From Candidatus Beckwithbacteria bacterium (lineage in GTDB: Bacteria > Patescibacteriota > Microgenomatia > UBA1400 > CG1-02-47-37): a stretch of DNA of 59,023 nt. The notes under the pieces were generated by a model. That model had not been told where the DNA came from. It did not search any database and saw only the letters and a program-made list of their open reading frames with translations. The position numbers and the translations under genes were made by a program. The stretch is taken from assembly GCA_026397255.1 (NCBI GenBank), contig JAPLVF010000014.1, positions 1 through 59,023 of the forward strand. The letters are read 5' to 3'. Positions 1-53,807 of the stretch are shown piece by piece; within the stretch, counting starts at the first letter, position 1, and each line of letters begins with the position of its first letter.

Positions 1-1307
1 TCAGCCGAGGCGACGTTGGGTAAATGATGGTGAATTTTAGTAAATTCTTCCAGGTCGATAGGGGAAAGGAGTTGATAATTAGTATCAAAAACATAGTCAG
101 GAACAAGGAGGTCGACCCCATTAATGGTAACATTGCCGCCATCTTTAATATAAAGACCGTAACCGGCGTTGTCGTAGAGTTTGATGCCGTCGTTGTTGAG
201 AGCCTCGATTTTATTGGTGGTTAGTTTAAGATTGGAAATAACTAATTCATCGTCGACTTGGGCATTTTTAGCCTTGACTTTGAAATCAGGGGAAAAGCCA
301 TAGCTGGTAATACCACCAATCCCCAGGCCGCCGGAGAAAACTAAATAATTATCGACAGAATTGGTAATAGACTCGCCGTAAGCGGAAAAAGTTAAATTGG
401 AGCTAATCGTGGCGTTGCCGGCGACACTTAAGCTGATCACTGAGGCAGACGGATCAAGAAAATAACTTGAGGAATCGCTGTCGATAAATTTATTAGCGTA
501 AAAATTGGCTAAAACTTTTGTGGGTTGGCTGAATAAAACCGGGTAGGCGCTATTCTCATCAATCGTCATAATTGCCTGGTCAGCACTGCCTAAGATTTTA
601 AGAGGCAAGGCGGAGTTGGTGGCCAGAGAAGAATTAAGATTGGCTGATTGGGAAGCGGCTTGATTTAGAGTAACCCAGTCTAACCCGTCAAAATACATGA
701 GGTTGCCGGTAGTTTTATCAACGTACTGGCGGCCGAGCTGATTATCAGGTTTAGCGGAAGGGGCAAATTGAAGAGCGGTAGTTTGAATGACGCCTTCAAC
801 CAGGGCGGAGTTTTTAAGATAAAGATTGCCTTTTTGGTCAAGAAAAGAGAGGGTGCCGGTATCCGAACCGATGGTAATCTGGCCGTTTAAAAAATTGGCT
901 ACCTGAGGCATGGCGATTTGCACATCTTGTTTATTTAAGTCTAGTTGTTGAATGGTCGGAGAAGCGATTTTGGAGGAATTTTGGTAAAAAAGGTAACCAG
1001 CAAGAAATAAAACAATGATTAAAGCGGTTAAGCTTAGAAAGTGAGTGTATTTGGTCCAGAGATTCACACCCGGTGTGTGGACATCCCTGCCTGCGCAGGC
1101 AGGTTTCACTCCGGGAATGGGATTAGGGGCAAGCTGAAGTTTTTTTAACTTCAAAATATCGTCGGGGGAAAAACGGCGCTGATTGCCGGGAGTTCTTTGG
1201 GGAATAAATTTGCCGGATTTTTCCCAGCGCCTAATGGTTTTCGGATGGATCCCTAAAGCTTGGGCAGCGTCTTTAATGCTAAACACTTTTACTCTGGAAA
1301 TGTCCAA
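1..1307 (-). CDS. Membrane-anchored HTH protein: MerR/excisionase-type HTH N-terminus, one TM helix, large beta-rich extracytoplasmic region; C-terminus runs off the left window edge
   Basis: Own translation of the minus strand. It is absent from the ORF track because no stop lies inside the window. Start is TTG 1307 or GTG 1286. Sequence ..VFSIKDAAQALGIHPKTIRRWEKSGKFIPQRTPGNQRRFSPDDI.., then TM FLSLTALIIVLFLAGYLF, then an uninterrupted Gly/Asn/Ser/Thr-rich frame down to position 1. Confidence 0.6.
   Translation of the reverse strand, partial: MDISRVKVFSIKDAAQALGIHPKTIRRWEKSGKFIPQRTPGNQRRFSPDDILKLKKLQLAPNPIPGVKPACAGRDVHTPGVNLWTKYTHFLSLTALIIVLFLAGYLFYQNSSKIASPTIQQLDLNKQDVQIAMPQVANFLNGQITIGSDTGTLSFLDQKGNLYLKNSALVEGVIQTTALQFAPSAKPDNQLGRQYVDKTTGNLMYFDGLDWVTLNQAASQSANLNSSLATNSALPLKILGSADQAIMTIDENSAYPVLFSQPTKVLANFYANKFIDSDSSSYFLDPSASVISLSVAGNATISSNLTFSAYGESITNSVDNYLVFSGGLGIGGITSYGFSPDFKVKAKNAQVDDELVISNLKLTTNKIEALNNDGIKLYDNAGYGLYIKDGGNVTINGVDLLVPDYVFDTNYQLLSPIDLEEFTKIHHHLPNVASA
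1065..1128. repeat. Composite GC-rich palindromic element inside the HTH gene, in-frame (family A copy 1)
   Basis: CACACCCGGTGTGTGGACATC (1065-1085) is identical to 3167-3187. It is followed by the perfect palindrome CCTGCCTGCGCAGGCAGG (1086-1103) and TTTCACTCCGGGAATGGGATTAGG, which is homologous to 3188-3217. Confidence 0.8.
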
Positions 1308-2496: not shown

Positions 2497-3642
2497 ATGT
2501 TAATCGGTATTGATGCGTCGCGGGCGTTTGGAAAAGACAAAACCGGTACGGAAAATTACTCTAAAGAAATAATTGAGGCGATTTTAAAATTGCCGGAGGC
2601 AAAAAAACATGAATTTATTTTATATGTAAGAAATCCCATAAGGTCCGACCTTGCAGGACTGCAAGGTCGGACCTTGCAGGTAAAAGAAATTAACTGGAAG
2701 ATGTTGTGGACGCAGGGAGGGTTGGCATTAGAGCTTCTTAAAAATCCGGTCGAGGTTTTATGGGTGCCGGCGCATACATTGCCGGTTATCAGAAATCCTA
2801 AAATTAAAACTGTGGTGACGATTCACGGCTTGGAGTATGAGTTTTTACCCCAGTATTATCAGTTTCCCCAGAAATTATGGCTGAATAAGTCAACGGAATA
2901 CGCGGTCAAACAGGCTGACAGATTAATTGCGGTGTCAGCGTGGACAAAAAAACAATTAGCGGCAAGGTTGGGAGCGGATGAGAAAAAAATTACGGTAATT
3001 CACGAAGGGATAAGCCCTAAATTTATTAATAGGCAGTTTAGCGGCGAATATTTAAGACAGATTAGATACAAATACTCTTTGCCGGGAAAATACATTTTGT
3101 TTGTGGGTACAGTCCAGCCGAGGAAGAATTTAGTCAGGTTAATTGAGGCGTTTTCAAAATTAATCACACACCCGGTGTGTGGACATCTTCCACACCGGGT
3201 GTGGAATGGGGATTTGGTCATAGTCGGGAAATTGGGATGGATGTATGAGGAGATTTTGGCGGCACCAAAAAAATATAAAGTGGAAAAAAGAGTGAAATTT
3301 ATCGGCCGGGTGGCCGAAGCGGATTTGGCCGCGGTCTATAAAATGGCCCAAGTGTTTGTCTACCCGAGTTTAATGGAGGGATTTGGTTTGCCGATTTTAG
3401 AGGCTTTGGCTTTAGGCATACCGGTAATTACCTCTGATCGGGGAGCGTTGCCGGAGGTAGCCGGGGAAGGGGCCTTAATCATTAACCCGGAAAAAACAGA
3501 AGAAATTACTCAGGCGATTCGCTTGGTTTTAGAAAACGATGAATTGAGGCAGGGATTGATTGAAAAAGGTTTACGCCAGGTAAAGCAGTTTTCTTGGGAA
3601 AAGGCGGCCCGGGAAACTCTGGAAATTTTAACAGATTGGTGA
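2497..3642 (+). CDS. Glycosyltransferase, GT-B fold (family 4/GT1-like)
   Basis: ATG at 2497 lies 1 nt after the mreB stop; the track start at 2389 overlaps mreB and is rejected. C-terminal YPSLMEGFGLPILEALALGIPVITSD.GALPEV is the typical EX7E region. Confidence 0.85.
   Translation: MLIGIDASRAFGKDKTGTENYSKEIIEAILKLPEAKKHEFILYVRNPIRSDLAGLQGRTLQVKEINWKMLWTQGGLALELLKNPVEVLWVPAHTLPVIRNPKIKTVVTIHGLEYEFLPQYYQFPQKLWLNKSTEYAVKQADRLIAVSAWTKKQLAARLGADEKKITVIHEGISPKFINRQFSGEYLRQIRYKYSLPGKYILFVGTVQPRKNLVRLIEAFSKLITHPVCGHLPHRVWNGDLVIVGKLGWMYEEILAAPKKYKVEKRVKFIGRVAEADLAAVYKMAQVFVYPSLMEGFGLPILEALALGIPVITSDRGALPEVAGEGALIINPEKTEEITQAIRLVLENDELRQGLIEKGLRQVKQFSWEKAARETLEILTDW
2640..2680. repeat. In-frame palindromic element (family B copy 1)
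   Basis: AAGGTCCGACCTTGCAG-GA-CTGCAAGGTCGGACCTT is a perfect 17+17 inverted repeat. It encodes ..IRSDLAGLQGRTLQ.. within the glycosyltransferase. Confidence 0.8.
3167..3217. repeat. In-frame palindromic element (family A copy 2)
   Basis: CACACCCGGTGTGTGGACATC plus the palindrome TTCCACACCGGGTGTGGAA plus TGGGGATTTGG. It encodes THPVCGHLPHRVWNG between the conserved LIEAFSKL and LVIVGK segments. Confidence 0.8.
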
Positions 3643-5000: not shown

Positions 5001-5655
5001 AATTCTGGGAGTAAGGGTGGATAGAGCGAGCTTAGAGGAGGCAGTGGAGTTGGTCGGTAGATGGGTAAGGCAAGATAAAAAAAGATATATTGCGACTATA
5101 AATCCCGAGTTTGTGATGTTGGCCCAGAAAGATGAGGAATTTAAAAAAATCTTAAATCAGGCGGATTTGGCAATCTGCGACGGAATCGGATTAGCGTGGG
5201 CCATAAAAAGGTCAGACCTTACAAGGTCTGACCTTTTAAGAGTTACGGGTACGGATTTGATGCTGGCATTAATTAAAAAAGGTTATAAAACGGTTTTAAC
5301 CGGTGGTTTTAATAAAGTGGCGGAAAAGGCCGGTAAAAAACTGGGGGTAGTTGGTATGAGCGAACCCAATGTGGCAGAAATTAATAAAATTAAGCCGGAT
5401 TTGCTGTTTGTGGCTTTGGGGATGGGAAAACAGGAGAAATGGATTGTTCACAATTTACCCAAATTAAAAGTTAAGGTAGCGATGGGGGTGGGTGGGGCGC
5501 TGGACCAAGTGGTGAAGCCGTGGTTAAGAGCACCCTTACGGGTGCAAGCGCTTGGGTTGGAATGGCTGTGGCGGTTGATGGTTCAGCCGTGGCGGATAAA
5601 AAGACAGTTAGCGCTAGTTAAGTTTATTAAATTATTTTTCCTGGATACCCAATAA
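4987..5655 (+). CDS. WecB/TagA/CpsF-family glycosyltransferase
   Basis: MLSVKILGVRVD...ATINPEFVM...ADLAICDGIGL...FVALGMGKQEKW is the family pattern. The ATG at 4987 overlaps the ALDH stop. Confidence 0.8.
   Translation: MLSVKILGVRVDRASLEEAVELVGRWVRQDKKRYIATINPEFVMLAQKDEEFKKILNQADLAICDGIGLAWAIKRSDLTRSDLLRVTGTDLMLALIKKGYKTVLTGGFNKVAEKAGKKLGVVGMSEPNVAEINKIKPDLLFVALGMGKQEKWIVHNLPKLKVKVAMGVGGALDQVVKPWLRAPLRVQALGLEWLWRLMVQPWRIKRQLALVKFIKLFFLDTQ
5206..5237. repeat. In-frame palindromic element (family B copy 2)
   Basis: AAAAGGTCAGACCTT-AC-AAGGTCTGACCTTTT encodes ..KRSDLTRSDLLR.. It has the same CCATAA..AGGTCNGACCTT context and the same reading frame as 2640-2680. Confidence 0.8.
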
Positions 5656-14285: not shown

Positions 14286-14357
14286 CAGGGGTGGAAGGAT
14301 TTGAACCCTCACGAGAGCTTTTGGAGAGCTCCATGCTACCGTTGACATCACACCCCT
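14286..14357 (-). tRNA. tRNA-Trp (CCA)
   Basis: Hand-folded cloverleaf: acceptor AGGGGTG/CACCCCT, anticodon arm GAGCT-CTCCAAA-AGCTC, T arm GAGGG-TTCAAAT-CCTTC. No encoded CCA. Confidence 0.85.
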
Positions 14358-14398
14358 TTGTTAAAACTATTTTAACATATGCTTGTTATAATTATTGA

Positions 14399-15877
14399 GT
14401 GTCTGACAATCGCTTAACTAAAATTTTACTGGTAATATTGCTGTGTTTATTTTACGGCTTGTTTTTGAGTCACAAAATTAATTTGGTCACGGCGGATCTG
14501 GGAAGGCATTTGGTTAACGGACAAGTTTTCTGGGAAAAAGGCCAGATTTTGAAGACAAATACCTATTCTTATACAGAAACCGATTATCCGGTTTTAAATC
14601 ATCATTGGTTGAGTGGAGTGATTTTTTACAAAATTTGGCAAATAGGCGGATTTAGCGGTCTGCAGCTATTTTATATTTTGTTGTCAACGGCGGCTTTGGG
14701 GCTAATGTTGTGGTGGGCGTATGGCTCCGGTAATTTACTAATAACGACTTTATTGGCCTTGCCGGTGATTAATTTATTGGCAGAACGGACAGAGATCAGG
14801 CCGGAGGTATTTACTTACTTTTTTGTCAGTGTATTTTGGTTAATTTTGACAAAGTTTAAAGATAATCAGAAGACAAAATGGATTTGGCTGTTGCCGGTAT
14901 TACAAATAGTGTGGGTTAATACTCACATTTATTTTTTCCTCGGGCCGGGCTTAATCGGCTGTTTTTTATTGGGTAAACGGAGGTTTAAATTATTGACTGT
15001 TTTTATAGTTGATTGCTTGGCAATAATGGTTAATCCGTATGGAGTTAAGGGGTTGCTGGCGCCGCTGACGATTTTTAATAACTACGGTTACCGGCTGGCG
15101 GAAAATCAGCCGGTGTGGATGATTGAAAAAATACTCAGCAACCCGCATTATTTGGTGTTTAAAATAGTATTTTTACTGCTAGTGGCCAGTTTTATTTTTG
15201 TCTTTATCAAACAAAGAAAAGTAGCGGTGACTAATTTATTGGTAGCGGTGGCGATCAGTGCGGCCGGGTGGCTGGCGATCAGGAATTTTGCCTTATTTGG
15301 TTTACTGACTTTACCAATTATGGCGGTTAATTGGTCAGGGATTGCCAAAAATAGTCAAAATCAGTCATTTCTAGGGGTGACGGCGGTAGCAGTGGGAATA
15401 GTCGTTTACAGCCTGACGCATCAATTCGGTTTAGGTCTGGAAGTTAATAATCAAAAAGCTGCCGAGTTTTTTATTAAAGAAAACTTATCCGGCCCGATTT
15501 TTAACAATTATGATATCGGCAGTTACTTAATTTATTATTTTTATCCGCAGGAAAAAGTGTTTGTGGATAATCGGCCGGAAGCTTACACGGCAGATTTTTT
15601 TACTAAAGTTTATGTGCCGATGCAGGAAGACGATCAGGTGTGGCAGAAACAGCTGGAAAAATATCAATTTCAGGCGATTATTTTTTCGATTAAGGACTTT
15701 ACGCCGTGGGGACAGCAATTTTTAATTCAGAGAGTGAAAGATCCGGAATGGGCGCCGGTTTATGCTGATCAAAGAGTCATCATTTTTTTGAAGAGAAATG
15801 AAAAAAATGCGCCGGTGATCTCTCAGTTTGAGTTGCTGAAAGAGCGGTTCAGAATAAGTGGACCCGGAGGGAATTGA
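14399..15877 (+). CDS. Polytopic membrane protein (at least 10 predicted TM helices), possibly a glycosyl/lipid transferase of the GT-C type
   Basis: Highly hydrophobic 492 aa. GTG start lies 6 nt after TATAAT (14387-14392). The last 19 nt overlap tRNA-Ala on the other strand. Confidence 0.55.
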   Translation: MSDNRLTKILLVILLCLFYGLFLSHKINLVTADLGRHLVNGQVFWEKGQILKTNTYSYTETDYPVLNHHWLSGVIFYKIWQIGGFSGLQLFYILLSTAALGLMLWWAYGSGNLLITTLLALPVINLLAERTEIRPEVFTYFFVSVFWLILTKFKDNQKTKWIWLLPVLQIVWVNTHIYFFLGPGLIGCFLLGKRRFKLLTVFIVDCLAIMVNPYGVKGLLAPLTIFNNYGYRLAENQPVWMIEKILSNPHYLVFKIVFLLLVASFIFVFIKQRKVAVTNLLVAVAISAAGWLAIRNFALFGLLTLPIMAVNWSGIAKNSQNQSFLGVTAVAVGIVVYSLTHQFGLGLEVNNQKAAEFFIKENLSGPIFNNYDIGSYLIYYFYPQEKVFVDNRPEAYTADFFTKVYVPMQEDDQVWQKQLEKYQFQAIIFSIKDFTPWGQQFLIQRVKDPEWAPVYADQRVIIFLKRNEKNAPVISQFELLKERFRISGPGGN

Positions 15878-15929
15878 ACCCTCTACTCTTCCATGCCATG
15901 GAAGCATGTTACCGGTATACCACGGGCCC
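15859..15929 (-). tRNA. tRNA-Ala (GGC)
   Basis: Acceptor GGGCCCG/CGGGTCC carries the G3:U70 Ala identity pair. Anticodon arm CTTCC-ATGGCAT-GGAAG, T arm GAGGG-TTCAATT-CCCTC. Confidence 0.8.
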
Positions 15930-15935
15930 GGAAAT

Positions 15936-16115
15936 TTATTTTAATTTACTGGTTTCTTTGTGAATGGTGTGTTTACGGCACTTGCGGCAATACTTGGTTA
16001 ACGCCAATTTTTCCGGAGTATTGGTCCGGTTTTTTTGGGTAATGTAGTTTTGCCGATTGCAGACGGAACACTTAAGAGCAATCAGTCCGCGCGGGCCTTT
16101 AGATTTTTTTGCCAT
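15936..16115 (-). CDS. rpmG: 50S ribosomal protein L33
   Basis: Own translation (59 aa, below the track cutoff): [59 protein letters not shown]. It has the CxxC...CxxC zinc ribbon typical of L33. Confidence 0.9.
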
Positions 16116-16154
16116 AGACTGAAATATTAGCAGTAATTAGTGTTTTTGGCAATT

Positions 16155-16230
16155 TGGAGCCGTCTCCGGGATTTGAACCCGGGACCCCGCCCTTACCATG
16201 GGCGTGCTCTACCAACTGAGCTAAGACGGC
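16155..16230 (-). tRNA. tRNA-Thr (GGU), CCA encoded
   Basis: GCCGTCT-TA-GCTC-AGTTGGTA-GAGC-A-CGCCC-ATGGTAA-GGGCG-GGGTC-CCGGG-TTCAAAT-CCCGG-AGACGGC-T-CCA. Confidence 0.9.
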
Positions 16231-16254
16231 GTGCTTGCACTGAGCAAAGCGAAG

Positions 16255-16337
16255 TGCTGGGGGCAGGGTTCGAACCTGCGTAGCCGTAAGGCACGTGTTT
16301 TACAGACACGGGTAATTGACCGCTCTACCACCCCAGC
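16255..16337 (-). tRNA. tRNA-Tyr (GUA) with long variable arm
   Basis: Acceptor GCTGGGG/CCCCAGC, anticodon arm CGTGT-CTGTAAA-ACACG, long variable arm, T arm GCAGG-TTCGAAC-CCTGC. Confidence 0.9.
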
Positions 16338-16364
16338 TTTTTAACTTCATGCTATTATAGCAAT

Positions 16365-16697
16365 ATGACTACAGTTTTGATAAGGAATAAAGTTGATGAA
16401 GAAGGCTTAAATCAAGCCAAAAAAGATTACGGCGAATATATTAAAGTGGTTGTAGATATAAAAACAAAATTAATAACAATCGGGGGGGAATGGCATGCAG
16501 GCGGAGAGAAAATATTGATAGCCAATGGAAGCAAGCAGAGCGATTTGTGGGGCGGCGGAATTAATTTAAAAAATCAGCAGTTTGATTATACAGCCTTGAT
16601 TAATATCCGCGGTCAGACAAACCCCAGCCATGTGATTATGGATGTAAAAATAAGAGAAAAATTTGATAAAATTGTGAGAGAAAAACTAAATTTATGA
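16365..16697 (+). CDS. Small hypothetical protein (110 aa); I believe this resembles a DUF-type family common in CPR genomes, but that is from memory and unverified
   Basis: Open frame between tRNA genes with an ATGA overlap to the next ORF. ..ITIGGEWHAGGEKIL..DLWGGGINL.. Confidence 0.5.
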   Translation: MTTVLIRNKVDEEGLNQAKKDYGEYIKVVVDIKTKLITIGGEWHAGGEKILIANGSKQSDLWGGGINLKNQQFDYTALINIRGQTNPSHVIMDVKIREKFDKIVREKLNL

Positions 16698-16930
16698 ATC
16701 ATAAAAAAAATTTATCGGCAGATTTAATGAGGATTGGGGAGTGGTTGTATCATGGCGAGATAAATTTGGCCAGCCAATTTTTGGAGAGAGATATCAAGTT
16801 GTATGGAAATAAGGGACTGAAAATTGGTAATTTACCTGCCGGGTCATGGTTAAATAAGATAAAAAATCTAAGCGGAGAAAAATTGAAGGCGGCAGAGAAG
16901 GCGTGGACGGCGGCGGCAATTTTGGTTTAG
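16694..16930 (+). CDS. Small hypothetical protein (78 aa)
   Basis: Translationally coupled (ATGA) to the preceding ORF. No recognisable motif. Confidence 0.45.
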   Translation: MNHKKNLSADLMRIGEWLYHGEINLASQFLERDIKLYGNKGLKIGNLPAGSWLNKIKNLSGEKLKAAEKAWTAAAILV

Positions 16931-16944
16931 TTTTTTTATAGTTG

Positions 16945-17016
16945 AGCCGCCTCTCAGATTTGAACTGAGGACCTTCGCTTTACAAAAGCGTTGCTCTACC
17001 ACTGAGCTAAGGCGGC
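16945..17016 (-). tRNA. tRNA-Thr (UGU)
   Basis: GCCGCCT-TA-GCTC-AGTGGTA-GAGC-A-ACGCT-TTTGTAA-AGCGA-AGGTC-CTCAG-TTCAAAT-CTGAG-AGGCGGC-T. Confidence 0.9.
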
Positions 17017-17867: not shown

Positions 17868-18446
17868 ATTCGTAATCACATTTATCACCGGCATAATGAG
17901 TTTGATGGCTAAAGATGAGCCGCCGATGGGGAGAATTAACAAAATCAGTAAAACCGTACCGTAAGAGCGCATAAAGTCGTTGTATTCGTCAGCCCAGTCT
18001 AAAGGCAAGATGCCGTAAAGGATTTTAGAACCGTCAAGCGGGGGTATGGGCAGAAGATTGAAAATAGCCAGGTTAACATTAATAATAATTAAGGGAAGAA
18101 AAATAAGAGATAAGAGAGGGATGCCGGAAAGTTTGGTAATAATAGAAAGAATAGTGGCTAAAATCAGATTGCTGGCCGGACCGGCAAGAGAAATTAAGGC
18201 GGCGTCGCGTTTGGGGTGGCGCAGGTTAAAGGGGTCAAAAGGGACGGGTTTGCCCCAGCCGAAATGGAAAAATAAAAGCATCAAGGTGCCGATGGGGTCA
18301 AGATGGTTTAAGGGGTTAAGACTTAAACGTTTCATTAGTCTGGGAGTAGGGTCGCCTAATTTATCGGCCACCAGGGCGTGGCTAAATTCATGAACAGTTA
18401 GGGCGATTAAAAGCGCGGGAATAAAAATCAGGAAATCATTGAACAT
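17856..18446 (-). CDS. M50-family site-2 metalloprotease (short form, no PDZ)
   Basis: HEFSHALVA (HExxH) and NLLPIPPLDGS (NxxPxxxxDG) within a polytopic membrane protein. Confidence 0.8.
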   Translation of the reverse strand: MFNDFLIFIPALLIALTVHEFSHALVADKLGDPTPRLMKRLSLNPLNHLDPIGTLMLLFFHFGWGKPVPFDPFNLRHPKRDAALISLAGPASNLILATILSIITKLSGIPLLSLIFLPLIIINVNLAIFNLLPIPPLDGSKILYGILPLDWADEYNDFMRSYGTVLLILLILPIGGSSLAIKLIMPVINVITNLLL

Positions 18447-18450
18447 AATT

Positions 18451-18491
18451 TTAAATTAACCTAATTATTCTAATTGACCTAATTGACCTAA
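18451..18491 (+). promoter_or_regulatory. 41-nt AT-rich element shared with 50062-50102 (upstream of rpmB)
   Basis: TTAAATTAACCTAATTATTCTAATTGACCTAATTGACCTAA matches the rpsB-upstream copy at 37 of 41 positions. It contains tandem TAATTNACC units. Confidence 0.7.
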
Positions 18492-18502
18492 TGAATTATA
18501 GT
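18474..18502 (+). promoter_or_regulatory. Candidate rpmB promoter TTGACC-17-TATAGT, 10 nt before the ATG
   Basis: TTGACC at 18474-18479, TATAGT at 18497-18502. The 12-mer TTATAGTATATC recurs before topA (28150-28161). Confidence 0.45.
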
Positions 18503-27372: not shown

Positions 27373-28144
27373 TCCATTTGCAGTCCGGAATCCCATCCGG
27401 TTTTGAAAAATCTTTTTGAGAAAGATTGTAAATATCTACCTTAAGACAGTCACTTTCATTGTCTTTATTAAGACATTCCTGGGAATAGGTTTGTTCAGCA
27501 GATAATTCGGGGGTTTGTATCACCTCGTAGGTAGGTTTACAAACCGCTTTTTCTGATTCAGTAAATTTAAAGGTGGAGAGAATCTGGTCAAACTTTATCG
27601 TTAAATCATTTGGTGTTTTTATGTTGTCATATGGTCCGAGCATAAATCTATATATTAAACCGTTGGGATCCTTATAAATATAATTTAAAGTAAGGTACAT
27701 GTCTGCCACAATGTATTTTTCAAAATTATATCCGTTGATTTTTTCCGTACCTAAAGATTGAGTACTTTCGTATTTGGTCCAGGTATCAAAATTACTCTGC
27801 GGATCGAGGGATATTTGAATATAATAGTTAAATTTTTCCGGGGTATCAGTATCGGAAACCATGAAACTTTCGACATTAGTTTTGATTGTCGTAAAAGTCG
27901 GCTGGCTTGTCACGGTATATTCCGAGGGATATTTAAATGAGAATTGGTTGGAGGAGTTAGTATATTTTTTCCAGTCGGCTGTGGGGTCGAGCGAGGGGCT
28001 GGGAGAAGGTTTAACGAGAAGAGAAACGGGTGATTGCAAAACGGCGATTTGTTTTTGCAGCTGGAGGTTTTGATAAAAGAGGAAAGCAGAGGTTAAACTT
28101 GACAGACAGATTAAAATTATTAGGACTTGCTTAAACTTGTCCAT
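27359..28144 (-). CDS. Hypothetical secreted/membrane-anchored protein
   Basis: N-terminal TM/signal anchor VLIILICLSSLTSAFLFY. No recognisable domain. Confidence 0.5.
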   Translation of the reverse strand: MDKFKQVLIILICLSSLTSAFLFYQNLQLQKQIAVLQSPVSLLVKPSPSPSLDPTADWKKYTNSSNQFSFKYPSEYTVTSQPTFTTIKTNVESFMVSDTDTPEKFNYYIQISLDPQSNFDTWTKYESTQSLGTEKINGYNFEKYIVADMYLTLNYIYKDPNGLIYRFMLGPYDNIKTPNDLTIKFDQILSTFKFTESEKAVCKPTYEVIQTPELSAEQTYSQECLNKDNESDCLKVDIYNLSQKDFSKPDGIPDCKWTKSN

Positions 28145-28165
28145 ACTATTTATAGTATATCAAAT

Positions 28166-30091
28166 ATGAAATTGATTGTGGTGGAGTCACCGACTAAGGC
28201 GCGGACACTGGCTAAGTTTTTAGGCGGGGAGTTTACGATTGAGGCCTCGATGGGGCACGTGCGGGATTTGCCCCAGAAAAATTTAGGGGTGGATGTGGAG
28301 CATGATTTTAAACCGGAATATGTGATTGTCAAGGGGAAAACAGCGGTGGTAAAAAAATTAAAAGAGCTGGCGAAAAAGTCTGACAGGGTGATTTTGGCAA
28401 CCGATCCGGACCGGGAAGGAGAAGCGATCGCCTGGCATGTGCAATATTTGCTTAAAGGAAAAAATAAGTTCTCGCGAATTGTGTTTCATGAGATTACCAA
28501 AACAGCGATTGAAGCGGCGTTAAAAAATCCGGGCGAGGTGGATTTAAAGTTGGTGGATGCCCAGCTGGGCCGAAGAATTTTAGACAGATTGGTGGGTTAT
28601 AAACTGTCGCCGATTTTATGGCAGAAGGTGCGCAGGGGGCTGTCGGCCGGCCGGGTGCAAAGCGTAGCCGTGCGGTTGATTGTCGAGCGGGAGGAAGAAA
28701 TTAAGGTGTTTAAGCCGGAGGCTTTTTGGGTGGTGGGGGCAGTCTTAGGCAAAGACAAAGAAGAGTTTGAGGCTTATTTAAATAAAATTACGGATGAGAT
28801 GAAGGCTAAAGCGGCGGCCGCGGTTTTGGCTAAAGCTAGCTATCAGGTGAAAAATGTGGAAACTAAAGAAGTTAGGCAGTGGCCGTTGCCGCCATTTATC
28901 ACTTCAACCCTGCAGCGGTCAGCAGGAAATCGGCTGAAGTGGAGTGCCAAAAAAACCATGCGTCAGGCACAGCAGTTATATGAACAAGGCTTAATTACTT
29001 ACCACCGGACAGACAGTGTTAATTTGGCCATGGAAGCAGTCGGTAAGGCTAGGGATTTTATCGGGAAAAAATTTGGGGGAGAATATTTACCGGAAAAGCC
29101 GATTGGTTATAAAAGCGGTTCCAAGAATGTCCAGGGGGCGCACGAAGCCATCCGGCCGACGGATATGACAAGAGAAATAGTGGAGGACCAGTCAGCGAAC
29201 CGATTGTACCGTTTAATCTGGGAAAGATTTGTGGCTTGTCAGATGAAGCCGGTGCTTGTGGAAAAGACGACAGTAACCGTTAGCGCAGCTGACTACGAAT
29301 TAAAAGCCGAAGGCGAGCGGTTAGTGTTTGATGGTTGGTGGAAAGTTGATAAAAGATTAATGATTAAAGATTTAAAATTACCGGAGTTAAAACAGAGAGA
29401 TCAATTAGATTTAATTAAGGTTTTGTCAGAACAAAAACTGACTCAACCGCCGGCCAGATACACTGAGGCGAGTTTAATCAAAGTGTTGGAGCAAAAAGGG
29501 ATTGGCCGGCCATCTACCTATGCGCCGATTCTGTCAACCATTCAGGACAGATTTTACGTGGAGAAAAAGGAACAGAAATTAATACCGACGAGTATTGGTA
29601 CGACGGTGACGAAATTTTTAATGGAATATTTCCCGAAGATTATGGACTATGAATTTACGGCCAAAATGGAAGGGGATTTGGATGAAATCGCCCAGGGTAA
29701 ACAAAGTTCACAAGAATTACTCAAAAACTTTTATTCAGATTTTGACAGTAATCTAATTAAAGTTAAAGAAAAAGCCAAAAGAGCCAAAATTGAGGTGGAG
29801 ACAACGGGGGAAAAGTGTCCTGAGTGCAAAGAAGGTGACGTGGTTATCCGCACCGGCAGGTTTGGCAAGTTTTTCAGCTGTTCGCGGTTTCCGGAATGCA
29901 AATACACTAAACAGTACAAAGAAATTATTCAGGGAGTGAAATGTCCCGAGTGCGGCGGCGAGGTGGTGGTCAGGAAAACCCGGCGGGGAAAACAGTTTTA
30001 CGGCTGTGGAAATTACCCCAAGTGCAAGTGGATGAGTTGGAATAAACCAAAGAGCCTGCAAGGAGTCTCCTCGCAGGCAGTTATTGTATAA
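28166..30091 (+). CDS. topA: DNA topoisomerase I
   Basis: TOPRIM (MKLIVVESPTKA, DPDREGEAIAWH), active-site Tyr region ITYHRTDS, and two C-terminal CxxC zinc ribbons. ATG at 28166 lies 9 nt after TATAGT. Confidence 0.95.
   Translation: MKLIVVESPTKARTLAKFLGGEFTIEASMGHVRDLPQKNLGVDVEHDFKPEYVIVKGKTAVVKKLKELAKKSDRVILATDPDREGEAIAWHVQYLLKGKNKFSRIVFHEITKTAIEAALKNPGEVDLKLVDAQLGRRILDRLVGYKLSPILWQKVRRGLSAGRVQSVAVRLIVEREEEIKVFKPEAFWVVGAVLGKDKEEFEAYLNKITDEMKAKAAAAVLAKASYQVKNVETKEVRQWPLPPFITSTLQRSAGNRLKWSAKKTMRQAQQLYEQGLITYHRTDSVNLAMEAVGKARDFIGKKFGGEYLPEKPIGYKSGSKNVQGAHEAIRPTDMTREIVEDQSANRLYRLIWERFVACQMKPVLVEKTTVTVSAADYELKAEGERLVFDGWWKVDKRLMIKDLKLPELKQRDQLDLIKVLSEQKLTQPPARYTEASLIKVLEQKGIGRPSTYAPILSTIQDRFYVEKKEQKLIPTSIGTTVTKFLMEYFPKIMDYEFTAKMEGDLDEIAQGKQSSQELLKNFYSDFDSNLIKVKEKAKRAKIEVETTGEKCPECKEGDVVIRTGRFGKFFSCSRFPECKYTKQYKEIIQGVKCPECGGEVVVRKTRRGKQFYGCGNYPKCKWMSWNKPKSLQGVSSQAVIV
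30054..30078. repeat. GC-rich palindrome forming the extreme C-terminus of topA
   Basis: GCCTGCAAGGAG-T-CTCCTCGCAGGC (11 of 12 bp) encodes ..SLQGVSSQA.. It uses the same CCTGCAAGG/CCTTGCAGG words as family B. Confidence 0.6.
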
Positions 30092-39881: not shown

Positions 39882-40618
39882 ACTTTCAGGACAAGCTGGA
39901 CAAAATTGTTGCCAAAAATAATTCACTTCTTTGCGTAGGGTTGGACCAGGGAGAATGGGAGTTTAACCAGAAAATTATTGACCAAACCCATGATTTGGTG
40001 TGTGCTTATAAGCCTAATTTTGCTTTTTACGAAGCGTTGGGAATCAGAGGCTGGGAAAATTTAAAAAAAACAGTGGAATATATAAAAACATTCCACTCCG
40101 GAGTGGTAGTAATTGCTGATGCCAAGCGGGCGGATATCGGTAATACTAACGAGGGATACGTCAAGTCAATTTTTGATGATTTAGGATTTGATGCGGTGAC
40201 GGTTAACCCGTATTTTGGCCGGGAAGCGCTCCAGCCGTTTTTAGACCGAGCGGATAAGGGGATTATCATTTTATGTAAAACTTCTAATCCGGGTAGTGGT
40301 GAATTCCAGGACTTAGTTTGGGAAAAAGTTGCCAGAAATGTGGTCAATGATTGGAATAAAAATAACAACTGTTTGTTAGTGGCGGGGGCGACTTATCCGG
40401 AAGAATTAGCCAAAATCAGAAAAATTGCGGGGGAAATGACGCTATTAGTGCCGGGAATCGGGGAGCAGGGCGGGGATGTCGAAAAGACGGTTAAAGCCGG
40501 ATTAAACCGTCAGAAAGCCGGTATGATTATTAATTCTTCGCGCGGGATAATTTTTAGTGAAAATCCCCGCTTGGAAGCGCAAAAATTAAGAGATAGAATT
40601 AATCAATACCGCCAATGA
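39878..40618 (+). CDS. pyrF: Orotidine-5'-phosphate decarboxylase
   Basis: LCVGLD and IADAKRADIGNT (DxKxxD) motifs. ATGA overlaps at both ends. Confidence 0.85.
   Translation: MNFQDKLDKIVAKNNSLLCVGLDQGEWEFNQKIIDQTHDLVCAYKPNFAFYEALGIRGWENLKKTVEYIKTFHSGVVVIADAKRADIGNTNEGYVKSIFDDLGFDAVTVNPYFGREALQPFLDRADKGIIILCKTSNPGSGEFQDLVWEKVARNVVNDWNKNNNCLLVAGATYPEELAKIRKIAGEMTLLVPGIGEQGGDVEKTVKAGLNRQKAGMIINSSRGIIFSENPRLEAQKLRDRINQYRQ
40082..40116. repeat. 35-nt segment with an 18-nt palindrome core (family C copy 1) inside pyrF
   Basis: ATAAAAACATTCCACTCCGGAGTGGTAGTAATTGC is 33 of 35 nt identical to 42772-42806 in guaB, in the same reading frame (FHSGVVVIA). Confidence 0.85.
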
Positions 40619-42348: not shown

Positions 42349-43422
42349 ATGAACAAAGTCATTAATTTAAATAATCAAAGCGAGTGGTTGACGTTTGACG
42401 ATGTGTTATTGCTGCCGAATTATTCGGAAGTGACGCCTTCAAAAACGGATACAACAACTAAGTTAACAGAAAAAATTAAATTGCCAATTCCGATTTTAGC
42501 CTCACCGATGGACACAGTTTGCGAATCAGCGATGGCCCTCCGTTTAGGTAAAATCGGCGGGTACGGCATTATCCATCGTAACTTATCAATCGAAAAACAA
42601 GTGGGCGAATTAAAATTGGTTTTAAAAGCAGGGGTAAAAGCAGGAGCGGCGGTTGGGGTAGGGGTGGATTTTAAAGATAGAGTGGCGGCTTTAATTAAAG
42701 CCGGGGTGAAGGAGATTTGTGTGGATTCGGCCCACGGCCACACGAAACACGTTATTGAGGCAATTAAAAAGATAAAAATATTCCACTCCGGAGTGGAAGT
42801 AATTGCCGGCAATGTGGCTACTTATGAAGGCGCTGATGATTTATTTAAAGCCGGCGCGGCGGCAGTCAAAGTAGGGATGGGGCCGGGTTCGATCTGCACC
42901 ACCAGAATTATGTCCGGCATGGGAGTGCCGCAGTTGTCAGCGATTGTGGCTGGGGCCAAAGCGGCTAAAAAATATAAAAAAAGCATTATTGCCGACGGCG
43001 GTATCCGTACCAGCGGAGATCTGGTGAAAGCTTTGGCGGCCGGAGCGGCTGCAGTGATGCTGGGTTCTTTATTAGCCGGGACTGACGCGGCGCCGGGGAA
43101 ATTAGTCACTTATCAAGGTAAAAAATATAAAACTTACCGGGGAATGGGTTCGGTTGGAGCGATGAAGCAAGGGAGTGCCGAACGTTATGGTCAGAAAAAA
43201 ACCGATAAAATCCTGGTGGCGGAGGGGGTGGAGGGATTAGTAGAATACAAAGGCAAGCTGGAAGATTTTGTTTACCAGTTAGTCGGCGGGTTAAGATCAG
43301 GTTTAGCCTACCTGGGAGCAAAAAACTTAAAAGAATTGCGGCAAAAGGCCAAGTTCATCCGGATTTCCCGCGCCGGCGTGTATGAATCCCGGCCGCACAG
43401 CATTTTGCTGCTTGACAGGTAA
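42349..43422 (+). CDS. guaB: IMP dehydrogenase lacking the CBS (Bateman) subdomain
   Basis: [33 protein letters not shown] (catalytic Cys), IADGGIR and the IMPDH flap [15 protein letters not shown]...VAEGVEG. Only 357 aa. Confidence 0.85.
42772..42806. repeat. 35-nt segment with the perfect 18-nt palindrome TTCCACTCCGGAGTGGAA (family C copy 2) inside guaB
   Basis: See 40082-40116. Encodes FHSGVEVIA. Confidence 0.85.
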
Positions 43423-48769: not shown

Positions 48770-50059
48770 ATGGATCAGATTTTTAAGATAATAAAAAAGG
48801 AGAAACAAAGACAGAGGGAGGAGTTGGAGCTGATCCCCTCGGAGAATTTTGTTTCAAAAGCAGTAATGGAAGCGGTCGGGTCGTGCTTAATGAATAAATA
48901 TGCGGAGGGTTATCCGAAGAAACGTTATTATCAGGGAAATAGAAATGCGGATGAGATAGAAAGCTTATGCCAAAAACGCGCTTTGCAAGCCTTTGGCTTA
49001 TCTGACAAGGAGTGGGGAGTGAATGTTCAGCCGCACTCCGGTTGCGAGGCTAATTTGGCAGTTTACAATGCCTTGCTTCAGCCGGGGGATAAAATCATGG
49101 CGATGTATTTGCCGGACGGCGGACATTTGTCCCACGGCTGGTCGCTGCCTAACAAAAAAGTGACTTTAGTGTCGAAGATTTGGGAGGTCCAGTTTTACCA
49201 TGTTAACCAAAAAACTGAAGTTTTTGATTATGACCAGATTGAGAAGCAGGCGTTAAAATTTAGGCCCAAATTAATTATTTCCGGCGGGACAGCTTACCCG
49301 CGGACGATTAACCATAAACGAATGAGCCAGATTGCCAAAAAAGTGAGGGGTTATTATTTGGCGGATATTGCCCACGAGGCGGGTTTGGTGGTAGGCGGAG
49401 CACACGCCTCGCCGTTTCCTCATGCCGACGTGGTGACTTTCACGACCCACAAAACTTTGCGGGGGCCAAGAGGCGCAATGATTATTGGAAGGATTGATTT
49501 AATTGACAAAATTAATTTTTCAGTGTTTCCCGGGCTACAAGGTGGGCCGCATCTGCACACGATTGCCGGAATCGCGGTCGCTCTTCGTGAAACTCAGAGC
49601 AAGCCCTTTAAGAAGTATGCTTGGCAAGTGGTTAAAAATGCTAAGGTATTAGCGCTGGATTTAAAAAAAGGTGGTTTAAAGATTGTTTCCGGCGGGACAG
49701 ACAAGCATTTGGTGTTAATTGATTTACGTAACAAAAATCTGACCGGTTGGGTGGTGGCCTGGGCATTGGAAAAAGCGGGGATAATCGCTAACCGTAACAC
49801 CGTGCCTTACGATACCGGTTCAGCGTTTTATCCCTCGGGATTACGCCTCGGGACACCGGCCTTGACCAGCCGGGGGATGAAAGAAGAAGAAATGAAGCAG
49901 ATTAGCCAGTGGATTTTAAGCGTAATTAATTACCTTAAAGATAAAAATTTAGCTAATGATAGAGATACGCTCAAAAAATTATCCCAAGATAAATTTTTAC
50001 AAAACTTAAAAGCCAAAGTAAACGCATTGGCCAAAAAATACCCCTTGCCGGGAAAATAG
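48770..50059 (+). CDS. glyA: Serine hydroxymethyltransferase
   Basis: LIPSENF, VQPHSG and TTHKTLRGPRG (PLP lysine). Confidence 0.95.
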   Translation: MDQIFKIIKKEKQRQREELELIPSENFVSKAVMEAVGSCLMNKYAEGYPKKRYYQGNRNADEIESLCQKRALQAFGLSDKEWGVNVQPHSGCEANLAVYNALLQPGDKIMAMYLPDGGHLSHGWSLPNKKVTLVSKIWEVQFYHVNQKTEVFDYDQIEKQALKFRPKLIISGGTAYPRTINHKRMSQIAKKVRGYYLADIAHEAGLVVGGAHASPFPHADVVTFTTHKTLRGPRGAMIIGRIDLIDKINFSVFPGLQGGPHLHTIAGIAVALRETQSKPFKKYAWQVVKNAKVLALDLKKGGLKIVSGGTDKHLVLIDLRNKNLTGWVVAWALEKAGIIANRNTVPYDTGSAFYPSGLRLGTPALTSRGMKEEEMKQISQWILSVINYLKDKNLANDRDTLKKLSQDKFLQNLKAKVNALAKKYPLPGK

Positions 50060-50073
50060 ATTTAAATTATACT
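50045..50073 (+). promoter_or_regulatory. Candidate rpsB promoter TTGCCG-17-TATACT
   Basis: TTGCCG at 50045-50050 (inside the glyA 3' end), TATACT at 50068-50073. Confidence 0.4.
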
Positions 50074-50102
50074 AATTATTCTAATTTACCTAATTAACCT
50101 AA
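50062..50102 (+). promoter_or_regulatory. 41-nt AT-rich element shared with 18451-18491 (upstream of rpsB, ending 3 nt before the ATG)
   Basis: TTAAATTATACTAATTATTCTAATTTACCTAATTAACCTAA. Confidence 0.7.
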
Positions 50103-50105
50103 ATA

Positions 50106-50807
50106 ATGACTAAAAAAACTACAGAATATAAGATCAGTTTAAAGGAGCTTTTGGAGGCTGGATGCCATTTTGGCCACCAGGCGCGGCGTTGGAATCCAAA
50201 GATGAAGACATATATTTATGCTAAGCGTGAAGGGGTGCATATTTTTGATTTAGGCCAGACGGCCAAAAAGCTCGAAGAAGCGATGAAGTTTGTCCGGGAT
50301 TTAGTGAAAGAAAAAAAACAGCTGGTTTTTATCGGGACTAAGCGTCAGGCGGCGACGGTGATTAAAGAAGAAGCTGTCAAGTGCAGTATGCCTTACGTGG
50401 CTGTCCGCTGGCTGGGCGGGATTATTACCAATTGGGAGCAGATCAAAAAAAGTGTGGATAAAATGATGGATTTGGAAAAACGGAAAGCAGCCGGAGAGTT
50501 TAAGAAATATACCAAGCGGGAAAACGTCTTGATTGACCGGGATATTGATAAGTTAAACCGGTTTTTAGGAGGGTTAAGAAATTTGATACAACAACCCTCG
50601 GCTATTTTTGTGGTGGATATTAAAAAAGAAATTGCGGCGGTAAGGGAAGCCCGGAAAAAAGGCATCACGGTAATCGGTATTGTGGATACAAACGTCGACC
50701 CGGAATTAGTGGATTTAGCGATTCCGGCCAATGATGACGCAGTGGCCTCGATAAAATATATTGTTGGGAAAATTAGTCAGGCGGTAGTAGATGGCAGTAA
50801 AAATTAA
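50106..50807 (+). CDS. rpsB: 30S ribosomal protein S2
   Basis: LLEAGCHFGHQARRWNPKM, and VVD...E..AV.EA.K.GI.VI.IVDTN. Confidence 0.95.
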   Translation: MTKKTTEYKISLKELLEAGCHFGHQARRWNPKMKTYIYAKREGVHIFDLGQTAKKLEEAMKFVRDLVKEKKQLVFIGTKRQAATVIKEEAVKCSMPYVAVRWLGGIITNWEQIKKSVDKMMDLEKRKAAGEFKKYTKRENVLIDRDIDKLNRFLGGLRNLIQQPSAIFVVDIKKEIAAVREARKKGITVIGIVDTNVDPELVDLAIPANDDAVASIKYIVGKISQAVVDGSKN

Positions 50808-53151: not shown

Positions 53152-53242
53152 ATTTTACTCGGCCAAAGAGTTAATCAAAAGATTAAAAAGACTAGGTTTC
53201 ACAATTATTTCCCAGAAGGGCTCATTTGCAAAATTAAATTAA
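53144..53242 (+). pseudogene. hicA: Truncated, degenerate HicA toxin remnant (32 codons)
   Basis: Own translation: MPRFYSAKELIKRLKRLGFTIISQKGSFAKLN*. It aligns with the N-terminus of the intact HicA at 53534, but the GSH His is replaced (GSF) and the frame stops early. Confidence 0.6.
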
Positions 53243-53301
53243 AGGGGTTATTATAGGGTAGTTATGATTTTTGTCAGGAAAAGTGTTACAATTAATTACA
53301 T

Positions 53302-53752: not shown

Positions 53753-53807
53753 GGCGCATTTGTATAATTAAATTGTATGTGATATTATAGGGTATAATAT
53801 ACCTTAT

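Follow-up and report, generated by a model that had tools for sequence, protein, structure and literature searches.

A short palindromic DNA repeat, probably of the REP/REPIN type, carried in frame within genes of a Candidatus Beckwithbacteria contig and its relatives

Introduction

The closest described systems are REP (repetitive extragenic palindromic) sequences and the REP doublets forming hairpins (REPINs), in which a short GC-rich palindrome occurs as an inverted doublet with a spacer, two alternative folds (one long hairpin or two small ones) are described, stems differ by compensatory changes, several families may share a genome, and the genes of Y1 transposases are flanked by the cognate palindrome (PMC3116915). 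REPs within genes, for the most part dimers that encode 20-30 aa and in many cases located in repair genes, are also known outside the Candidate Phyla Radiation (CPR) lineage (PMC3733652). Here we describe an element that resembles REPs and REPINs in the former features, and probably in the last of them, found in a 59,023-nt stretch of DNA (contig JAPLVF010000014.1 of a Candidatus Beckwithbacteria bacterium, 43% G+C; hereafter the window), in related loci and in metagenomes. The CPR element is smaller than the Pseudomonas REPINs, which have inter-REP spacings of 71 and 110 bp: its core spans 37 nt and the whole unit, conserved flanks included, about 45-47 nt. In contrast to classical REPs its doublet has no GTAG/CGTC tag, and in contrast to their extragenic location it lies mainly in genes, with all window copies being intragenic. 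The proteins associated with it, unlike the REP-associated tyrosine transposases (RAYTs) proper, which mobilize REPs and REPINs, are about 220 aa long and match the RAYT model distantly, under the curated cut-off.

The Rickettsia palindromic elements (RPEs) are comparable in that a palindromic repeat is carried in frame by many unrelated and functional housekeeping genes of a small genome, in permissive parts of the proteins (PMC10969869); they differ in being about 150 bp long with a conserved peptide per family, whereas the CPR unit has about 47 nt (the nested one 18), is read in five frames and belongs to an unrelated lineage. A preliminary description of the window had named RPEs as the precedent, which holds for in-frame insertion in many unrelated genes and fails for size, about 100-150 bp in RPEs, and for the family-specific peptide, REPs and REPINs being nearer. 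As to sequence, RPEs are not known to resemble the CPR element. They are the functional analogue in Rickettsia.

A looser analogue is seen in the mobile GC-rich hairpin elements of organelles (yeast mitochondrial GC clusters in var1, double-hairpin elements of Allomyces, repetitive hairpin-forming elements of sponges), which are likewise very short, occupy compact genomes, are polymorphic between close relatives and sometimes lie in coding or rRNA genes at length-variable sites (PMC2800124). In contrast to the CPR element they lie mostly between genes, no transposase is associated with them, and a mechanism via RNA has been proposed for some. The small dispersed repeats of Nostoc, reported by Elhai and colleagues in Genome Research in 2008, are reportedly mobile units of 21-27 nt whose secondary structure is conserved and which show compensatory changes as well as nested insertions; they are cyanobacterial and reportedly mainly intergenic, with an RNA route proposed. 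Miniature inverted-repeat transposable elements derive from insertion sequences and have terminal inverted repeats and a target-site duplication. Their length is given as 70-300 bp (PMC3733652), whereas the CPR unit measures 37-47 nt and has no consistent duplication. Palindrome-associated elements derived from IS200/IS605 have a fixed 4-5 nt target on the 5' side and an orientation tied to the replication strand. For the CPR doublet no fixed target was found, and there is a bias of 32 versus 13 copies towards the G-rich strand. A full-text literature search retrieved no description of such an element for CPR bacteria, which is not proof of its absence.

Results

Structure of the two copies in the window

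The 21-mer CACACCCGGTGTGTGGACATC occurs exactly twice in the window, at 1065-1085 and 3167-3187, both times on the plus strand, and none of 100 dinucleotide-preserving shuffles of the window contained a match even at three mismatches. The identity of 21 out of 21 nt reported in the preliminary description is thus borne out. In copy A (3163-3209, plus strand, about 47 nt) the 13-nt palindrome X (CACACCCGGTGTG, 3167-3179) is followed by an 11-nt spacer (TGGACATCTTC), after which X' (CACACCGGGTGTG, 3191-3203) stands as the reverse complement of X. Each half is palindromic and can form a local hairpin (3165-3181 and 3188-3206), and in the minimum-energy fold of the single-stranded DNA X pairs with X' to form a single long hairpin, with energies of -16.4 kcal/mol (z = -3.7) for the plus strand and -16.3 kcal/mol (z = -4.7) for the minus strand. 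Copy A conforms to the doublet pattern by which 68 metagenome contigs were retrieved.

Copy B (1063-1127, plus strand, about 65 nt) is composite. It begins with X (1065-1077) and the first eight spacer bases (TGGACATC), which together make up the complete shared 21-mer, continues with a perfect 18-nt palindrome (CCTGCCTGCGCAGGCAGG, 1086-1103, no strand assignable) and ends with a second arm (TTTCACTCCGGGAATGGGATTAGG, 1104-1127) that is a decayed X' with a 5-nt deletion. Beyond the 18-mer, 21 of the 24 aligned bases equal those of copy A, with one 5-nt gap and one 1-nt gap. Because the match between the copies resumes after CCTGCCTGCGCAGGCAGG, copy B is a copy-A-like element with an insertion nested in its loop, and the best explanation is that it acquired this second, smaller palindrome in its spacer later. 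In the predicted fold of copy B the 18-mer forms a separate hairpin within the loop of a degenerate outer stem. The homology of the flanks noticed earlier is therefore real, provided that the nested 18-mer, previously skipped, is recognised; likewise, the proposed size of about 50 nt suits copy A and falls short for copy B, owing to the nested palindrome.

Host genes and position of the insert in the proteins

Copy A lies in a gene for a glycosyltransferase of the GT4 family (2497-3642, plus strand, 381 aa), in which it is translated in frame as ITHPVCGHLPHRVWNGD. Copy B lies in a minus-strand gene (3-1292) for a protein with a MerR-type helix-turn-helix (HTH) domain and a membrane helix, the C-terminal part of which extends beyond the window edge; here the other strand is translated and gives PNPIPGVKPACAGRDVHTPGV, which falls within the linker that connects the HTH domain with the membrane helix. 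The orthologs of this second host gene bear Pfam MerR/HTH_17 domains. Both open reading frames (ORFs) run intact through the element and use opposite coding strands, and both copies keep the same chromosomal orientation, in agreement with what had been read from the letters alone. The gene order HTH / MreB / glycosyltransferase / aldehyde dehydrogenase / WecG is kept in independent assemblies.

The closest orthologs of both proteins, encoded at locus L001, are devoid of the element. The glycosyltransferase ortholog (71-73% identity) has no such hairpins at the site of copy A, and the HTH ortholog (52% identity) has a shorter, non-palindromic linker. Among 44 glycosyltransferase orthologs, which range from 349 to 445 residues, there are three length-variable hotspots, and copy A occupies the third: the segment between the EAF motif and the LVIAG strand comprises 20 residues in the window protein versus typically about 8-12 in relatives. 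In an AlphaFold2 model of the glycosyltransferase, with a mean predicted local distance difference test (pLDDT) score of 87.6, the insert is predicted as an irregular loop (residues 225-238) that joins the helix 212-224 to the strand 239-243, with pLDDT below 50 at residues 228-232; this position in a low-confidence loop supports the view of a repeat inserted in frame.

At the site of copy A the relatives carry different sequences, CACACC.GGTGTG in the window, CACTCCGGAGTG in L002 and CACCCCGGGGTG in L004. The L004 copy is reversed in orientation, which argues for separate events at a permissive site.

Longer inserts are present at the GT4 hotspots of L007 and the orthologs P0025, P0042 and P0049, where they are shared among hotspots within a single protein, as with EGSELALRDRLSINSRLEVRN (hotspots 1 and 3, P0025) and VEPSLANARVNIPQMPGFRK (hotspots 2 and 3, P0049). 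This sharing suggests further, larger repeat families of about 60-70 nt with imperfect hairpins.

Distribution in related loci and metagenomes

With one stem position left free, a loose pattern of the family was scanned over about 1.4 Mb of related loci and gave 25 matches, compared with 4.5 on average, and 9 at most, in triplet shuffles. The matches are paired at a spacing of 23-24 nt; their hosts in other Beckwithbacteria-like genomes are the glycosyltransferase, the HTH protein and a Sua5/TsaE gene. A Watson-Crick pair occupies the free position in 17 of 18 hairpins (A-T 7, T-A 6, C-G 4; p = 8e-10), and the two hairpins of any one doublet always have an equal pair type. Stem pairs were counted by script from the hairpin centre, as a MAFFT alignment of eight doublets misregistered even-centred against odd-centred hairpins. 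Five odd-centred doublets were examined, and each has an X' that reverse-complements its X, the order always being CCCGG followed by CCGGG.

JGI metagenome contigs were scanned for X followed by 10-12 bases and X', with exact arms, which yielded 75 exact doublets in 68 contigs. The commonest spacer is TGGG(A/C)GCCCTT, and the consensus of the doublet reads ..CAGA-CACACCCGGTGTG-TGGGMGCCCTT-CACACCGGGTGTG-TTGGG.., with neither a GTAG nor a CGTC tag; a GTAGG...CCTAC core does occur in another, long-hairpin family of the relatives. No consistent target-site duplication was present at the doublet flanks among the copies examined. The flanks have a weak consensus, with A at -1 in 26 of 29 copies and T at +1 in 20 of 29, and no fixed target; this consensus may belong to the element itself.

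Of the 75 doublets, 72 lie within ORFs of 60 aa or longer, a weak criterion over six frames. Of the 58 copies away from contig ends, 54 lie within ORFs of at least 200 aa, versus 82% of random positions. The preliminary description had suggested counting further copies of the 21-mer itself, coding versus intergenic, in the genome and in related bins. The exact 21-mer CACACCCGGTGTGTGGACATC had no match in the genome contig and metagenome contig collections, which indicates that relatives close enough to share it are not in those collections, and it was the doublet pattern that revealed the predominantly coding location.

The metagenome hosts form 32 protein clusters, most of them with clear Pfam housekeeping domains: ribonucleotide reductase, TsaD, UvrB, TruB, ComEC, Obg, DprA, MreB and IF-2, as well as ATP-dependent DNA ligase, Pol IV, ABC ATPase, MacB/FtsX, mannosyltransferase, histidine kinase and GT4 enzymes. 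The doublet is read in five of the six frames, TPGVKG(A/S)HTPGV being the commonest peptide. This use of both strands and five frames in 32 unrelated protein families, together with orthologs that do not have the element, upholds the earlier view of a DNA-level element as opposed to a protein motif. In GT4 proteins the doublet occupies four different sites; L119 and L143 have it in opposite orientations at one orthologous site, and at a second such site four coordinated stem bases differ. These sites and differences point to independent insertions.

Variation between strains and the 18-nt palindrome

Ten contigs from a single Beckwithbacteria population were compared; their identity is 98.3-99.8%, and they come from different samples and different assemblers. 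The palindrome CCTGCCTGCGCAGGCAGG appears as a precise in-frame indel of 18 nt in an ORF of 500/506 aa, being present in four contigs and absent from six. The junction is ambiguous by 2 nt only, there is no consistent target duplication, and the 18-mer is not an inverted copy of its own flanks. Strains of this population also differ in the HTH linker, where a 40-nt hairpin is exchanged, within identical flanks, for a variant in which four pairs have changed in a compensatory way. Both differences are evidence of recent movement.

Davies-, Falkow- and other CPR bacteria have the 18-mer and a 20-nt relative in further genes, read in different frames. One of these copies (L028:1742-1783) lies between direct repeats (TCCGTTAA) and is the only one resembling a target duplication; nothing comparable accompanies the other copies, and such a duplication was rejected as a property of the 18-mer. 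The 25 matches of the 18-mer in viral contigs, mostly contigs of 58-67% G+C, were taken as unrelated.

Beside the palindrome indel, the strains vary in ordinary, slippage-type ways. A large ORF differs in the copy number of 12-nt tandem repeats (GTTGATAATGTT; CGGTCAAACCAA) between L004 (at 14671 and 14082) and L005, L088, L089 and L092, and an AbiEii-like gene has a 66-nt deletion in some strains.

Palindromes beside RAYT-like transposase genes

RAYT-like genes were sought by a motif search of the DNA of the related loci and then by tblastn, and were identified in eight loci. Their proteins of about 220 aa have the HUH and tyrosine motifs, belong to the Pfam family Y1_Tnp, and have the REP-associated tyrosine transposase as their best NCBIfam match (E from 1.7e-17 to 4.7e-9). 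The gene that bears on the doublet is located in L148 (L148:2790-3502; Pfam PF01797, E = 1.4e-8; NCBIfam REP-associated tyrosine transposase, E = 1.7e-17). A CACACC doublet stands upstream of it (2729-2765) and AATTCCACACCCGGTGTGGAATT downstream; 10 nt past the stop codon the sequence reads ACCTAATTCCACACCCGGTGTGGAATTAGGT. Its protein has 753 homologs at E <1e-10, which bear CPR names wherever the sources give names.

Homologs with about 52% identity, encoded in L197 and L199, have palindromes of their own on both sides of the gene; the palindrome of L197 recurs elsewhere on the locus, and the core of that in L199 is CACACCCGATGTG. Palindromes also flank the RAYT-like genes of L113, L122, L123 and L030; their types, AAGG..CCTT and CCTGCGAGG, are those located at 2640-2679, 5206-5237 and 30054-30078 of the window.

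Orientation and strand composition

The doublet was assigned the plus orientation when its spacer reads TGGG..CTT, and 45 copies were scored. It is aligned with the G-rich strand in 32 copies versus 13 against (p = 0.007), and opposite to the coding strand in 34 of the 45 (p = 0.0008). All 20 copies in genes on the C-rich strand (20/20) agree with both preferences, and the copies in genes on the G-rich strand divide 11 to 13. The table of orientation by coding strand is non-random, with a Fisher p of 0.0003 by copy and of 0.012 by host cluster.

Both window copies are in plus orientation, i.e., on the G-rich strand. The GC skew of the window is strongly positive on the plus strand in every 2-kb block (0.09 to 0.30) and stays positive over minus-strand genes (0.215 over 1-1290). 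A report on a complete Microgenomates genome mentions an unusual disparity in nucleotide composition between the two DNA strands (PMC7143001). The orientation pattern fits a strand-specific DNA process combined with selection on the encoded peptide, the sample being small.

Discussion

Origin and spread of the element

The repeat exists at the DNA level, is in frame in both window genes and is absent from their closest orthologs, and the copy A insert lies in a predicted loop. Its family is present in many unrelated genes, the 18-mer is polymorphic at the strain level, and matching palindromes flank one RAYT-like gene. In our view the element is probably selfish DNA of the REP/REPIN type, a small, non-autonomous repeat that forms hairpins and survives in frame in permissive loops. 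Since the family is tied to RAYT-like transposases, REPs and REPINs with intragenic copies are the nearest known kind. From the gene neighborhood, which for the CACACC type is that of one contig, we infer that the RAYT-like protein mobilizes the doublet.

The proposed mechanism is that a RAYT-like Y1 (HUH) tyrosine transposase would copy or move the doublet in trans, acting on hairpins of a putative single-stranded DNA intermediate and leaving no target-site duplication. Most insertions would land in genes because there is very little intergenic space in these genomes. The surviving copies would be those that keep the frame, introduce no stop codon and lie in loops tolerating 10-15 extra residues, such as, presumably, the helix-strand loop of the GT4 enzyme and the linker from the HTH domain to the membrane helix. 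The insert would then be neutral for the protein.

Several observations weigh against the REP/REPIN reading. All RAYT-like proteins score under the NCBIfam curated cut-off of 80 bits, palindromes of the CACACC type flank only one of their genes (that of L148), and this gene has a single in-frame TAG after the YHHVMNKSIVGF segment, which may reflect a pseudogene or a sequencing error. No RAYT-like gene was detected in the 59-kb window by the motif search and tblastn, no enzyme is tied to the 18-nt palindrome, and the doublet does not have the GTAG or CGTC tag of the classical REP superfamilies. The bias in orientation can be explained in part by selection for the mildest peptide, TPGVKG(A/S)HTPGV, and the spacer appears able to flip in place. 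Finally, the family hairpins in the orotidine monophosphate (OMP) decarboxylase and inosine monophosphate (IMP) dehydrogenase genes entail no change in length versus a PDB homolog and versus the Thermotoga IMP dehydrogenase 1vrd, respectively; simple insertion does not explain these two cases or two GT4 sites that are also of the same length. Such same-length replacements suggest that conversion or template switching contributes as well.

The same replacements, in which several copies substitute a segment of equal length and add no residues, can be taken further, to a spread of the palindromes with no dedicated transposase, by hairpin template switching and short-patch gene conversion, with the RAYT-like genes being incidental. 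The exchange of a hairpin for a family variant at one site between near-identical strains would fit such a process, as would the equal pair type of both hairpins of a doublet, which arm-to-arm copying would produce, and the lack of a target duplication or of a conserved target beyond the weak flank consensus. However, to reach genes of 32 unrelated protein families, and distant lineages as well, these sequences require dispersal to non-homologous sites; at least six loci have RAYT-like genes with matching palindromes on either side, and the 18-mer indel is no inverted copy of its flanks. We regard transposase-free spread as unlikely, yet as an explanation to be taken seriously.

Retention of the hairpins for a function in the host, as an RNA or DNA structure within genes (e.g., a translation or transcription pause at domain boundaries, an mRNA stabilizer or a protein-binding site), appears to us improbable. 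The compensatory changes that keep the stems paired, folds far more stable than those of shuffled controls, and the placement of copies at boundaries of secondary-structure elements would all be expected of a functional structure. Yet compensatory change is also expected from the turnover of a mobile palindrome, as for REPINs (PMC3116915), and the closest orthologs manage without the hairpins. Their sites vary between relatives and their presence varies within a species; they are found in either orientation to transcription, and no Rfam family matches them.

Two further explanations have very little probability. A true protein motif, i.e., a short peptide selected for its function with DNA identity as a by-product, could account for TPGVKG(A/S)HTPGV being the commonest reading of the family, but is already contradicted: the peptides of the two window copies are unrelated and come from opposite strands, the family makes use of five of the six frames, orthologs do not have the peptide, the predicted structure gives the insert no fold, and the copies are more alike in DNA than any shared peptide would demand. 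Equally improbable is a DNA uptake signal or some other over-represented word that the host recognizes and that accumulates in tolerant parts of genes. Known DNA uptake sequences are often inverted pairs, CPR bacteria encode competence proteins, and ComEC and DprA are among the doublet hosts; nevertheless, two doublets and two single hairpins in 59 kb are a far too low density, and the stem varies by compensatory change, which fits recognition of a structure and not of a fixed word. Least probable of all is an artefact of assembly or sequencing such as a chimeric join at a short repeat, a general risk of metagenome assembly for which nothing more speaks; both reading frames are intact through the element, the gene order around it is kept in independent assemblies, and the same element types occupy the same sites in contigs from ENA, JGI, NCBI and Logan.

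Selfish DNA of the REP/REPIN type, to return to the reading that we prefer, may represent a broader REP-RAYT system of CPR bacteria (Patescibacteria), in which repeats live mainly in essential genes, the 18-nt unit inserts or excises precisely and in frame, hairpin turnover is a major and continuing source of loop insertions and length variation in the proteins of these reduced genomes, and orientation is set by the replication strand and the tolerated frame. We put this forward tentatively, as a possibility of which we are rather doubtful. If it holds, the 18-nt palindrome would be among the smallest mobile DNA units known.

The family described here accounts for a part of the short inserts and odd low-complexity peptides in predicted CPR proteins (TPGVKGAHTPGV, FHSGV, LPAQAG, RSDL), which can mislead alignments, domain calls and phylogenies. 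It also indicates that selfish DNA of the REP type need not be extragenic and persists in housekeeping genes where spacer DNA is nearly absent. The intragenic copies offer a natural map of the loops of conserved enzymes that tolerate 6-15 extra residues, and the strain-level 18-nt indel, together with a distinct clade of RAYT-like proteins, offers a tractable system for the single-stranded DNA transposition of minimal substrates. The repeats could also be used as strain markers in metagenomes.

Other palindromes and repeats in the window

The window contains 24 G+C-rich hairpins with a stem of at least 8 bp, versus a mean of 7 in shuffles. Palindromes of 13-19 nt that belong to the family of the doublet occur at 1065, 3167, 3191, 40094 and 42784. 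The last two are single hairpins of the T-A flavor of this family: TTCCACTCCGGAGTGGTA in the OMP decarboxylase gene (40091-40108, plus strand), read as FHSGVV, and TTCCACTCCGGAGTGGAA in the IMP dehydrogenase gene (42781-42798, plus strand), read as FHSGVE. The IMP dehydrogenase copy equals the copy at 40077-40116 in 36 of 40 nt. An Rfam search of the window returned five tRNAs and one sub-threshold chance match near 5203-5261, and no family for the hairpins.

The glycosyltransferase gene that hosts copy A has a second, different palindromic repeat in its hotspot 1 (2640-2679, plus strand), with a stem of 16-17 bp, a predicted fold of -19.9 kcal/mol (z = -8.9) and the reading RSDLAGLQGRTLQ; its unit CTGCAAGGTCGGACCTTGCAG is similar to palindromes flanking the RAYT-like genes of L122 and L123. 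A hairpin of the AAGGTC-N-GACCTT family is located in the gene for a WecG/TagA-type glycosyltransferase (5206-5237, plus strand; -14.6 kcal/mol, z = -7.3), where it is read as KRSDLTRSDLL and its loop varies in length among orthologs. A similar palindrome, GGTCAGACC, adjoins the RAYT-like gene of L030. The WecG hairpins of the window, L002 and L004 were considered as a conserved orthologous insertion, and this was rejected after protein alignment placed them at different positions, only the site of L002 and L004 being common.

The last codons of the ORF 28124-30088 include the palindrome GCCTGCAAGGAGTCTCCTCGCAGGC (30054-30078), with an 11-bp stem and one mismatch, which stands directly before a TATAAT-like sequence and is similar to CCTGCGAGGATGATCCTCGCAGG, located directly after the RAYT-like gene in L122. 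Five tRNA genes are clustered on the minus strand at 14286-17016, and the palindrome at 15888-15904 returned by the hairpin scan is the structure of one of them (15859-15929). An AT-rich direct repeat of 56 nt, whose copies at 18441-18496 and 50052-50107 are 84% identical and contain CCTAATT(G/A)A units, has no relation to the GC-rich palindromes. Another direct repeat, of 42 nt (53219-53260 and 53753-53794; 81% identical), has its copies 534 nt apart and ends in TTATAGGGTA.

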